A program made the position numbers and the translations under genes. Below the pieces are notes generated by a model that saw only the letters and a list, made by a program, of their open reading frames with translations, was not told the DNA's origin and searched no databases. DNA of 64,000 nucleotides from Escherichia phage EP_H11: sequence record OP688485; one strand, written 5' to 3'. Positions 6,110 to 8,307 of the stretch are shown here, piece by piece. The stretch's first letter is position 1. Every line of letters starts with the position of its first letter.

Positions 6110-8053
6110 ATGGAAAAAGTCGCTGCTCTGGTAGAGCAAATCAAGAATGCGGCTAATGCATATTATAATGGTGACCAGCCCATTATTACGGACGAAGAGT
6201 TCGATGCTCTTACCGAGAAATTAGCTGAGCTGGACCCTAATAACCCACTCCTTACTACCCCAGGCTGGGGTGTAACCGAAGCTGCAGAACATCTGGCTAA
6301 GTGCCCACATGGCTCATTCGTGGGTGGTCTTGACCAGGTTAAGATCGGTGCTGTGGAAGAGGGATTTAACTTCCTCCATGGCCACGAAGAAGTTAAGGGA
6401 TTCGTTGCTTCAGCTAAGCTGGACGGTATCTCGGTAGTTCTGTATTACGACTACGACGGTAACTTCGTCCGTGGTTTAACTCGCCACGATGGTGTATTTG
6501 GTCTGGACATCACGAAGAATCTGGAGTGTGCAGAATTCCCTCGCCAGATTCCTAAAGGTATTAAAGAAGTCCGCTGCGAAATCGTTATTCCTGATGATAA
6601 GTTCGAGCGGATTAGTCACGAGTACAGTAACCAGCGTAATGCTGCTTCTGGTATTGCTCTGGCTAAGTATAGTGATCCTGCATTAATGGAACTGCTTGAT
6701 GTAGTTGCATATTCGGTAACGGCATTCTACGAGGATGTGGATCACGAGACATGGATGGATGACTACAACCAGCTTCTGCTGTGCTTAAGTAAGGCTGGGT
6801 TCAAAGTAGTTAAGTACTTCGTTCTTCCAGCAGGTTATGTCAATAGCTGGCTGGTTGCTAACCCACCATCTAAGTTCCGCGAAGATCCAGTCTGCAACTA
6901 CCTGCTGGATGGTGTAGTTCTCGGATCTATGAATGTTGACTGGGATGAGAATATGTTGGGCAAGAATACTGTCCATTATAAGATCAAGTATCAATCAGCA
7001 TTCTATGACACCACCGTGGTTAAGGTGCACTGGGTAGTTAGCGGTTACGGCCGAGTCGTGCCTACTGTTGAGTTCGAGACGGTAGACATGAGTGGCGTTA
7101 ATGTAACTTATGCATCCGGATGGAATGCTGAGTATATCAAGAATGCTGGTATCGGACCTGGCGCTAAGATCAAGATTAGTCGTCGTAACGAGGTAATTCC
7201 TCATATCGAAGAAGTCGTGGAACCCGTCACTGCGGTGATTCCAGAGTTCGTAGATGGGGTACGTACCTTCTGGGATGGTGTACACATCCGCATCAAGACC
7301 AAGCTTGACCCGATGGTGATTCGTACCATTATCCGAGACTTCGCTCCTAAGGGTCTAGGTGGCGTAAATATCAATAAGTTTGCTGAGCAGGCTAAACTTG
7401 ATGACATTTCCATGTTGAATGACATAATAAAGACTGGCCCATCTCATCCGGTATTCGGCATGGTAGAGATGTACGATGGTCCTCTCCAGCTTACTCGTCA
7501 GTCCTTCTTCAATATGAAGGAACGTCCTACCTCTATGGACCACATGCTGACTTGTACCTGGACGGATGGTCTTGGTTATGCTACAGGAATGCGTATTGCT
7601 ACTGCGGTAACCCGTGACCAGATGATTCGTGTGCTGCGTAACAATAGCTTCCACGACATGGTTAATGACGGTATCCAGGTCAATACCGAGGACTACGAAA
7701 TCTGTAAGGCAATATATGATGCCTGCATGGGTTCCGTAGCTAAGAAGATTGCAGAGAATCAGGAAGTAATCCTGAAGGTGCTGAATCTTCCTCTGAACTG
7801 GGTAGCCTCTAAGGTAGAGGAACCGCTTCCGGAAGGTAAGTTCAAGATCTGCTTAACTGGTAAGCTTAGTAAGCCTCGTAGCGAACTGGTTAACTCCTGG
7901 ATCAAATACGGCGTAGTCGAAGTCGGTATCGGCGACGCAGAATATCTGGTATGCGACAAGCCGAGTCAGTCCAGTAAGTTTAAGGCTGCCGAAGCTAAGG
8001 GTACCAAGATCGTTACCGAAGATCAATTCCGTAAAATCATTGGAGCTGAATAA
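6110..8053 (+). CDS. ligA: NAD-dependent DNA ligase (LigA-type)
   Basis: 647 aa; N-terminal AYY...ITDEEFD...L..LDPNNP region, adenylation motif KLDG, TRHDG..G.DIT, NQRNAASG, C-terminal BRCT-like region, all collinear with bacterial LigA as remembered. Confidence 0.9.
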   Translation: MEKVAALVEQIKNAANAYYNGDQPIITDEEFDALTEKLAELDPNNPLLTTPGWGVTEAAEHLAKCPHGSFVGGLDQVKIGAVEEGFNFLHGHEEVKGFVASAKLDGISVVLYYDYDGNFVRGLTRHDGVFGLDITKNLECAEFPRQIPKGIKEVRCEIVIPDDKFERISHEYSNQRNAASGIALAKYSDPALMELLDVVAYSVTAFYEDVDHETWMDDYNQLLLCLSKAGFKVVKYFVLPAGYVNSWLVANPPSKFREDPVCNYLLDGVVLGSMNVDWDENMLGKNTVHYKIKYQSAFYDTTVVKVHWVVSGYGRVVPTVEFETVDMSGVNVTYASGWNAEYIKNAGIGPGAKIKISRRNEVIPHIEEVVEPVTAVIPEFVDGVRTFWDGVHIRIKTKLDPMVIRTIIRDFAPKGLGGVNINKFAEQAKLDDISMLNDIIKTGPSHPVFGMVEMYDGPLQLTRQSFFNMKERPTSMDHMLTCTWTDGLGYATGMRIATAVTRDQMIRVLRNNSFHDMVNDGIQVNTEDYEICKAIYDACMGSVAKKIAENQEVILKVLNLPLNWVASKVEEPLPEGKFKICLTGKLSKPRSELVNSWIKYGVVEVGIGDAEYLVCDKPSQSSKFKAAEAKGTKIVTEDQFRKIIGAE

Positions 8054-8307
8054 TGTCTGTAACTTTGGAACAGGTTAAAGATGCGCTGCGATCTGCAGTA
8101 GCTGACATCATGATGGTTGATATTCTGGAAGTAACTGAAACTACTACTGGTGAGCAGTTAGGTGCAGATTCTCTGGATGAAGTGGAGATCATCATGCGTG
8201 TTGAAGATGAACTGGGTATGGAAGACTGTATCCCAGACTTCGACTATGATAGCGACGATACTCTGGAGCAGGTGGCAGAAAAGATCGTGGCAGTTCTGAA
8301 CCAGTGA
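8053..8307 (+). CDS. acyl carrier protein-like protein
   Basis: 84 aa acidic protein with LGADSLDEVEIIMRVEDELG matching the ACP phosphopantetheine-attachment motif. Confidence 0.7.
   Translation: MSVTLEQVKDALRSAVADIMMVDILEVTETTTGEQLGADSLDEVEIIMRVEDELGMEDCIPDFDYDSDDTLEQVAEKIVAVLNQ

Follow-up and report, generated by a model that had tools for sequence, protein, structure and literature searches.

Stand-alone acyl carrier proteins (ACPs) occur in many large phages without a demonstrated role. Published accounts describe phage ACPs as rarely found and of unclear role, and a recent one calls them "poorly characterized" and predicts computationally that one of them binds the host enzyme FabZ (2026 PNAS, PMC13291599). 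In the literature that we searched, phage ACPs appear in annotations, in mentions within virion proteomics and in that one ACP-FabZ prediction; experimental work on any of them was not found. The described representatives of these orphan carriers, grouped in the protein families PHROG 5934 and 4154, include ORF083 of the Ralstonia phage phiRSL1, gp339 of the Achromobacter phage Motura, gp111 of the Xanthomonas phage phiXF1 and Vi01_122c of the Salmonella phage Vi01. In this work, we analyzed a stretch of 64,000 nucleotides of Escherichia phage EP_H11 (sequence record OP688485; the whole stretch is called the window and all positions are counted within it, unless stated otherwise), in which an ACP gene lies at 8053-8307 on the + strand, stop codon included. 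Like the orphan phage carriers, its product is a stand-alone phosphopantetheine-binding (PP-binding) protein encoded among early/middle or nucleic-acid genes, bears the signature DSLD..E..M..E and has no adjoining genes for fatty acid synthesis (FAS), polyketide synthesis (PKS) or phosphopantetheinyl transferases (PPTases). It differs from them in its low identity (25-41%), in forming a 50%-identity cluster of its own, in a clade-specific loop and in its E. coli host. The window ACP is a divergent newcomer to a known, unexplained class, the phage orphan ACPs, and not a new type of system.

The ORF (open reading frame) at 8053-8307 is a real gene for a protein of the ACP family, with a predicted ACP fold and a conserved modification site. 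Its 84-residue product (MSVTLEQVKDALRSAVADIMMVDILEVTETTTGEQLGADSLDEVEIIMRVEDELGMEDCIPDFDYDSDDTLEQVAEKIVAVLNQ) contains the motif LGADSLDEVEIIM at residues 36-48 (nucleotides 8158-8196, + strand), which spans the end of loop I and the start of the recognition helix II and includes Ser40 (codon TCT, 8170-8172), the predicted attachment site of 4'-phosphopantetheine. Its start codon and the ligase stop codon before it overlap (TAATG, 8051-8055), and a Shine-Dalgarno sequence, GGAG, can be read 7 nucleotides upstream of the ATG (8042-8045, + strand). The Pfam family PF00550 (PP-binding) matches the protein at 32.4 bits (E 1.1e-7; gathering cut-off 20.8), and a precomputed match to the same family is present on all four metagenomic homologues. 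The profile of PHROG 5934, annotated as acyl carrier protein, aligns with residues 6-83 at 8.1e-9 and that of phrog_4154 matches at 1.4e-4. A phmmer search against all Protein Data Bank (PDB) chains retrieved solely ACPs (108 chains at E<=1), the best being mitochondrial SDAP (7ar9_T, 2.4e-7) and a Thermus ACP (4.7e-7). In an AlphaFold2 model built from five sequences of the clade (mean pLDDT 81), helices span residues 5-20, 43-54 and 71-82, and Ser40 stands immediately before helix II. The 50 PDB structures that Foldseek ranks best for this model (TM 0.5-0.72) are without exception ACPs, either by themselves or as subunits of larger complexes, and the best matches in the viral structure library BFVD are carrier proteins of the phages Motura, Harreka_1, pf16 and phiCbK. 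The ratio of nonsynonymous to synonymous substitution rates (dN/dS), computed with homologues whose proteins are 92% and 77% identical, lies at 0.13-0.16 for dS values of up to 0.88; the frame is therefore under purifying selection. The protein is rich in acidic residues (23 D/E vs 4 K/R; net charge about -19; computed pI about 4.05). For E. coli AcpP, in a sequence consistent with the PDB ACP matches, the computed pI is the same; acidity is therefore a family trait. Taken together, these results confirm what an earlier reading of this DNA from its letters alone (the sequence-only reading) had proposed, namely an ACP-like gene at these positions whose product is an 84-residue acidic protein with an intact phosphopantetheine-attachment motif; its remark that phage ACPs are rare and of unclear role is likewise in line with the literature (PMC13291599 among the sources).

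The closest well-described relatives are E. coli AcpP and the other ACPs of type II FAS (TIGR00517 / PF00550). Both AcpP and the phage protein have about 80 residues, are very acidic, are predicted to form helices I, II and IV, and carry the DSL serine at the start of helix II; the sequence of this helix is SLDEVEIIMRVEDEL in the phage protein and SLDTVELVMALEEEF in AcpP, with the acidic residues that contact AcpS kept. They differ in that the overall identity is about 31%, and the phage protein lacks the aromatic residue of loop I, has no predicted helix III, has two more residues after helix II and comes from a phage type in which 75 scanned ORFs revealed no FAS genes. We aligned the window ACP and one further member of its clade with eight other phage ACPs and E. 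coli AcpP. Eight columns of this alignment are invariant, corresponding to the initiator Met, D39, S40, L41, D42, E45, M48 and E51 of the phage protein, the equivalents of which in E. coli ACP (EcACP) are, after the Met, D35, S36, L37, D38, E41, M44 and E47. The counterparts of EcACP D35, E41, E47 and E48 are all acidic in the phage ACP (D39, E45, E51 and D52), and the triplet D39-S40-L41 is unchanged across the clade. In a preprint based on the structure of the AcpS-ACP complex, the substitutions D35N, E41A and E47A/E48A each blocked the action of E. coli AcpS on ACP in vivo (10.1101/2025.01.28.635281), and most foreign type II ACPs were reported to be modified by E. coli owing to the conservation of helix II (10.1101/2025.01.28.635281). 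Since the helix II residues that AcpS requires, as judged by these mutants, are all kept, we consider it likely that host AcpS would convert the phage ACP to its holo form at Ser40.

No partner enzymes were recognized in the phage itself. Pfam was run on 75 distinct non-structural ORFs from the window and the rest of the genome of its close relative IME392, comprising almost all ORFs of at least about 95 residues outside the virion block. Among these ORFs there was no PPTase, ketosynthase, acyltransferase, thioesterase or AMP-binding/adenylating enzyme, nor any fab or PKS domain; the domains found belong to replication, repair, nucleotide metabolism, DNA modification and counter-defence. Because neither a PPTase nor an acyl-handling enzyme was found in this set, the phage ACP appears as an orphan that relies on the host.

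The explanation we favor, with a probability of roughly 45%, is that of an orphan carrier which is made holo by host AcpS and then turns to the ACP-dependent enzymes of the host, either serving them as a second, parallel carrier or competing for them. According to this proposal, the phage would supply a highly divergent ACP of the type II FAS kind, without partner enzymes of its own; AcpS of the host would attach the prosthetic group to Ser40; and the resulting holo protein, through its AcpP-like helix II, would join the host ACP network, its targets being the AcpP-dependent enzymes of fatty-acid, lipid A and phospholipid synthesis. The protein would in this way help to take over the host or add to its metabolism, through either supply or throttling, and would not belong to a biosynthetic pathway encoded by the phage. 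The step from modification to an action on host ACP-dependent enzymes is itself tentative and somewhat short of an even chance. Excess apo-ACP is reportedly toxic to E. coli by way of inhibition of the glycerol-3-phosphate acyltransferase (Keating, Carey and Cronan, 1995), and an over-expressed ACP can for this reason be expected to perturb host lipid synthesis. Hijacking of host lipid metabolism, one of several roles offered by the sequence-only reading, would be the most plausible of them.

Several observations weigh against this explanation. The window ACP falls short of the AcpP equivalog models of NCBIfam (TIGR00517 / PRK00982; cut-off range 66-106), with scores of 36.0, 33.9, 30.7 and 30.4 bits vs cut-offs of 71, 92, 106 and 70.45; the scores being below all equivalog cut-offs, we file the protein as ACP-like and not as AcpP. 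An association with fab genes, as expected of an AcpP, was not seen among the 75 scanned ORFs either. Loop I and helix III, which in E. coli ACP help to shape the pocket for the acyl chain and make contacts with FAS enzymes, both differ in the phage protein. The loop I position aligned to EcACP F28 is non-hydrophobic, the clade having an invariant TTGEQ there. Helix III is swapped for an invariant acidic loop, PDFDYDSDD, which AlphaFold2 models as coil and which follows a two-residue insertion after helix II that is absent from all other ACPs in the alignment. As these acyl-pocket and partner-contact regions are altered, the cargo or the partner of the phage ACP may be unlike those of AcpP. 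The clade-specific element as a whole comprises residues 59-72 (CIPDFDYDSDDTLE, nucleotides 8227-8268, + strand), of which I60-E72 are unchanged across the clade, the homologue with 77% identity included, with D66N in P0002 as the sole exception. Indeed, the C-terminal half of the protein is near-invariant even in that homologue, and it is helix I that varies; judging from the sequences, a loop kept so strictly points to a dedicated partner. Besides, many ORFs of the window phage have no Pfam match, which leaves room for a partner enzyme that was not recognized, and the scan covered ORFs of about 95 residues or more outside the structural block.

Other known carriers offer further points of comparison. 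In a permissive tblastn search, 39 phage records gave weak matches to the ACP, many of them to annotated ACPs. The gene of phiXF1 stands between gyrB-like and gyrA-like genes, that of phiRSL1 follows immediately after an RtcB ligase and that of Vibrio phage helene precedes a helicase, while the ACPs of pf16, Motura, BCSR5, fHe-Yen9-04 and the metagenomic contig L018 are found amid hypothetical genes. Vi01_122c (PP-binding at 8e-7), in the stretch 80640-88655 of the Vi01 record, comes right after a 738-residue VWA-domain protein and lies 6.5 kb downstream of the 5-hydroxymethyldeoxyuridine (5-hmdU) DNA kinase Vi01_130c, on the same strand. At these nine other phage ACP loci, no FAS, PKS or PPTase neighbors were found. 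The window ACP belongs with this group by its match to the profile of PHROG 5934 and its location in a phage genome, with a family X DNA polymerase (PolX), a NAD-dependent ligase (LigA), a 77-residue protein and a PinA-like protein as encoded neighbors. The mitochondrial ACP (NDUFAB1/SDAP) and AcpP acting as a structural subunit (complex I, NFS1-ISD11, MukBEF) are the top PDB sequence matches of the window ACP and are among its top fold matches, and they show that ACPs have protein-binding as well as carrier roles. They differ from it in that no LYR-type or MukB-type partner was found in the phage, and the resemblance may reflect general ACP similarity. The D-alanyl carrier protein DltC is likewise a small stand-alone carrier, serving a cell-surface modification, and matches weakly in NCBIfam. 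This match reaches 20.4 bits vs a cut-off of 68, and no DltA-, DltB- or DltD-like proteins were found among the phage ORFs scanned with Pfam.

Among 50,697 phage records, a single one is close to the window, with 94.6% identity: that of Escherichia phage vB_EcoM_IME392 (MH719082; 116 kb; sewage). The capsid, sheath and tail genes of the window phage are on the strand opposite to that of the ACP gene, and both results uphold the description of the gene as phage-encoded in the sequence-only reading. IME392 carries an ACP ORF (record positions 6800-7051) that is 100% identical to the one in the window and has no annotation in GenBank: with 85 features per 116 kb, the record passes from a "putative DNA ligase" straight to an "inhibitor of host Lon protease". 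By its major capsid protein, the phage is related to Acinetobacter phage Ab1-TPeters (63% identity) and Ralstonia phage RP13 (55%) and more distantly to Rhizobium and Vibrio phages, YerA41, phiXF1 and SP-15. As far as sequence comparison goes, it is an IME392-like E. coli myophage within a loose lineage defined by the capsid. A word-indexed search of 5.8 billion proteins yielded four relatives of the ACP, with 77-92% identity and all metagenomic. An exhaustive HMMER search of 1.84 billion representatives clustered at 50% identity yielded a single cluster at E < 1e-10, that of the ACP itself, and generic ACPs from 3e-8 downward; on cluster look-up, the next ten matches were metagenomic singletons, one of which, on contig L018, is another phage-like orphan ACP. 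No relatives were found in IMG/VR when it was scanned with the alignment of the ACP clade. The gene was called, with a PP-binding domain, in five of five metagenomic relatives, and the gene order PolX-LigA-ACP-77-residue protein is the same in all five ACP-carrying contigs. By these searches, the ACP clade is very narrow, and the gene is apparently an accessory one of a small set of IME392-like E. coli myophages. As this lineage includes a cultured E. coli phage, the genetics and biochemistry of AcpP, AcpS and the fab and lpx genes are applicable and the function of a phage ACP becomes directly testable. The analysis has also added a gene that the record of IME392, the sole related phage in GenBank, does not annotate, and has removed a tempting link to glycosyltransferases, as discussed next.

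The ACP gene is the third of a trio that starts with a small PolX (5272-6045, + strand; Pfam DNA_pol_B_thumb and HHH_8), whose position is conserved in the contigs L002, L003 and L006, and continues with the full-length, 647-residue LigA-like ligase (6110-8053, + strand; Pfam DNA_ligase_aden, DNA_ligase_OB, Nlig-Ia and BRCT; PHROG 3869 at 7e-89). It is followed by the gene for a conserved 77-residue protein (8362-8595, + strand; PHROG 7644), a homologue of the PinA-type Lon inhibitors (8582-9001) and two small proteins without an assigned role. Hairpins that resemble terminators, each followed by a T-run and each recognized by its consensus pattern, are found on the + strand at 4542-4562 and, with a UUCG loop, at 9565-9584; they likely mark the upstream and downstream boundaries, and the ACP gene thus appears, on this sequence evidence, to share with PolX and LigA one transcription unit, proposed to span about 4570-9584. 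The adjacency of LigA and ACP is retained in five related contigs. A functional coupling of the two is unsupported: the ligases of Ab1-TPeters and RP13, the best full-length phage matches to LigA (33% identity), are followed by unrelated genes, tblastn found no ACP in the stretches around LigA of these two phages, and neither phage was matched in the collection-wide search at E<=10. The slot after LigA looks therefore like a variable insertion point, with LigA followed by unrelated genes in the nearest capsid relatives, and the LigA-ACP adjacency is specific to the ACP clade. Gene overlaps such as that of LigA and ACP are frequent throughout this genome.

The sequence-only reading had also considered the ACP as a carrier working with the nearby glycosyltransferase genes, and here the results went the other way. 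The cassette in question (10313-13002) consists of four genes, encoding two paralogous MptE-like/DUF115 proteins, a GT1-family protein and a protein of about 209 residues, which has no family match and appears by eye to be of the DXD type. The hairpin at 9565-9584, which resembles a terminator, separates it from the ACP gene and places it in the following transcription unit, which begins with a DUF7217 gene (9609-10316). On contig L006, where PolX, LigA and ACP are present, the part equivalent to window positions 10349-12954 is missing after DUF7217, although this contig has only 7.9 kb and another part of the same genome could hold the cassette; contig L002 instead lacks the PinA-like block (8613-9562). 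Flanks that vary by insertion and deletion thus surround a constant core, as these two contigs indicate. The GT1 protein matches Dbn of phages P1 and P7 along 97% of its length (48% identity). Dbn is a stand-alone putative glycosyltransferase encoded beside ban; no ACP was found in the P1 region around dbn, and no P1-type record matched the phage ACP (tblastn, E<=10). With a separate, terminator-bounded unit, a cassette missing in L006 and a GT1 protein that is a homologue of P1 Dbn, a link between the ACP and the glycosyltransferases was rejected as unsupported, and the ACP is taken to be independent of the cassette. We also rejected the 178-residue protein at 10313-10849 as a "holo-ACP synthase": the NCBIfam match, at 15.2 bits vs a cut-off of 149, was judged to be due to chance, and the protein and its neighbor share MptE-like/DUF115 motifs (VASGPS..., NSGAQAI...LLGYD) and lack AcpS motifs.

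These data have to be weighed against other explanations of the ACP gene. Its product could be the carrier of a phage-specific modification pathway, with enzymes hidden among the unannotated ORFs and an acyl or aminoacyl cargo bound for hypermodified DNA or a glycan. IME392 does encode a 5-hmdU DNA kinase (HMUDK_hel, 3e-35) with hypermodification-like neighbors, the window holds the glycosyltransferase-like cassette, and the invariant acidic loop suggests a dedicated partner. The same kinase matches 364 phage records, mostly of Ackermannviridae, the family with the same-strand arrangement of Vi01 described above; two unrelated lineages, the IME392-like phages and Ackermannviridae, thus have both an ACP and a 5-hmdU kinase, though no partner common to them came to light. 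Set against this are the lack of any adenylating enzyme, acyltransferase or PPTase among the 75 scanned ORFs, the distance of about 27 kb between the kinase block and the ACP gene in IME392, the separation of the cassette from the ACP unit together with its absence after DUF7217 on L006 and the occurrence of its GT1 homologue in P1 without an ACP near dbn, and the finding that Ab1-TPeters and RP13 have no ACP after LigA and no tblastn match at E<=10. In addition, the known thymidine hypermodification pathways use free amino acids and are not known to involve carrier proteins. We therefore regard such a pathway as unlikely, if the foremost of the alternatives. A little less probable again, and built on analogy, is that the protein might be a non-catalytic ACP mimic or accessory subunit which binds an AcpP-docking protein or a phage DNA-repair protein and alters its activity, much as AcpP docks on MukB, or as complex I and the NFS1-ISD11 complex each contain mitochondrial ACP as a structural subunit. 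The structural-subunit ACPs among the best PDB matches (complex I SDAP/NDUFAB1, NFS1-ISD11-ACP and MukBEF), the position of the gene within a DNA-repair unit (PolX-LigA), where its start codon overlaps the LigA stop, the phage ACPs in the nucleic-acid modules of phiXF1, phiRSL1 and Vibrio phage helene, a fused Mre11-Rad50 SMC-like protein encoded by IME392 and, here as well, the invariance of the acidic loop speak for it. Yet the unrelated genes after LigA in the nearest capsid relatives indicate a variable insertion spot and not a functional pair, overlapping genes are common in this genome, and the invariant AcpS-contact residues fit attachment of the cofactor, although docking of AcpP to its partners can use the prosthetic group too.

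One could also imagine the ACP-like protein as an accessory factor that bears a cofactor and serves in phage DNA transactions, and not as a device of lipid metabolism, a notion that we consider doubtful. In one version, it would be a subunit or decoy that docks, through the acidic loop and the prosthetic group, on an SMC-type or repair protein, either MukB of the host or Mre11-Rad50, LigA or PolX of the phage; in another, it would be a carrier delivering a group to hypermodified thymidine. If true, this would explain why orphan ACPs recur in nucleic-acid modules of large phages that are not related to one another, next to LigA here, RtcB in phiRSL1, topoisomerase genes in phiXF1 and the 5-hmdU kinase in Vi01. 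It is this recurrence, together with the co-presence of ACP and 5-hmdU kinase in two lineages, that keeps the modification carrier and the accessory subunit alive as rivals of the host-directed orphan carrier. A DNA-mimicking anti-restriction or anti-defence protein, ACP-like merely through small size and acidity, is in contrast very improbable. The net charge of about -19, the pI of about 4.05 and a region rich in genes of the counter-defence type (Acb1-like at 54-560, PinA-like at 8582-9001 and NADAR at 21010-21669) might be taken to suggest it. But the pI computed for E. coli AcpP is no different, sequence and fold both point specifically to an ACP, the cofactor site is conserved, the fold matches ACPs only, and no Pfam or PHROG match to Ocr, ArdA or other mimic families was obtained. 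Such an anti-restriction role had been among the options of the sequence-only reading, and we found nothing in its favor beyond an acidity that AcpP shares in equal measure. As for a chance ORF or the functionless remnant of a decaying gene, the missing annotation in the GenBank record of IME392, the closest phage, is what could be cited for it; it is refuted by the dN/dS of about 0.15 (dS up to 0.88), the Shine-Dalgarno sequence, the Pfam score above the gathering cut-off and the gene calls in five of five relatives, and its probability is negligible.

Some further observations concern the DNA around the ACP gene. Immediately behind its stop codon and ahead of the next ATG (8362), the + strand can form a conserved hairpin (8313-8338) with an 11-bp stem and a UUCG loop, without a U-tract. 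Its minimum free energy is -24.1 kcal/mol (z = -4.25); one stem pair appears as A-U, G-U or G-C across the relatives, and the intergenic DNA is 97% conserved, vs a coding dS of up to 0.88. The hairpin may be an element of RNA processing, RNA stability or termination by a phage polymerase. A block of about 600 nucleotides (7838-8434) that comprises the 3' end of the ligase gene, the ACP gene, this hairpin and the start of the next gene shows zero differences from IME392, in a region whose remainder diverges by about 6%, with 317 differences over 5.3 kb. From the sequences, this suggests a recent recombination tract. Farther downstream, a 59-nucleotide intergenic element (9563-9621), which contains the terminator-like hairpin AGGGAGAC-TTCG-GTCTCCCT and its T-run, is 96.6-98% identical in IME392 and L006, even next to genes that differ or have been replaced; in L006 its identity is 98%, against 84-86% in the flanks where these are not replaced. 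The element resembles a conserved junction with a regulatory role between two units.

Other observations concern the genome of IME392 beyond the window. At about 31100-40800 of its record there is a block resembling those for thymidine hypermodification, which holds a YfbR-like HD 5'-deoxynucleotidase, a thymidylate-synthase-like protein (357 residues), an AAA_28 protein, the 5-hmdU DNA kinase (HMUDK_hel, 3e-35), two proteins of about 350 residues without an assigned role, a PIG-L-type deacetylase, a full-length BCCT betaine/carnitine/choline transporter (1e-92) and an S-adenosylmethionine-methyltransferase-like protein. A transporter beside DNA-modification genes is odd in a lytic phage, and it may import a precursor for a new base modification. 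The same genome encodes, at 45374-48139 of the record (30375-33140 of L009, our stretch of IME392), a 921-residue fusion of an Mre11-type phosphoesterase with a Rad50/SMC-type ATPase, with coiled coil and zinc hook; counterparts of Mre11 and Rad50 are usually separate phage proteins, as are gp46 and gp47 of T4. Split genes for multisubunit RNA polymerase of the beta/beta' type (RNA_pol_Rpb1) were seen at 1458-3026 and 4905-6419 of L009 and at 1-1117 of L002, in phages of about 113-116 kb; multisubunit RNA polymerases of phages are better known from jumbo phages.

Within the window, the Acb1-like anti-CBASS candidate (54-560; 27.5 bits, at the cut-off), the PinA-like gene and the gene for a NADAR domain protein (21010-21669; 95 bits) are, from their sequences, candidates for counter-defence or host takeover. 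Additional genes on the + strand encode a DUF4326 protein, a RyR-domain protein, a dUTPase, a dCTP-deaminase-like protein (two genes after the dUTPase), a cell-wall hydrolase of the Hydrolase_2 family and a LysM protein, the ranges listed for this group being 23071-23400, 23663-24043, 24040-25404, 26469-26831 and 17389-17955.

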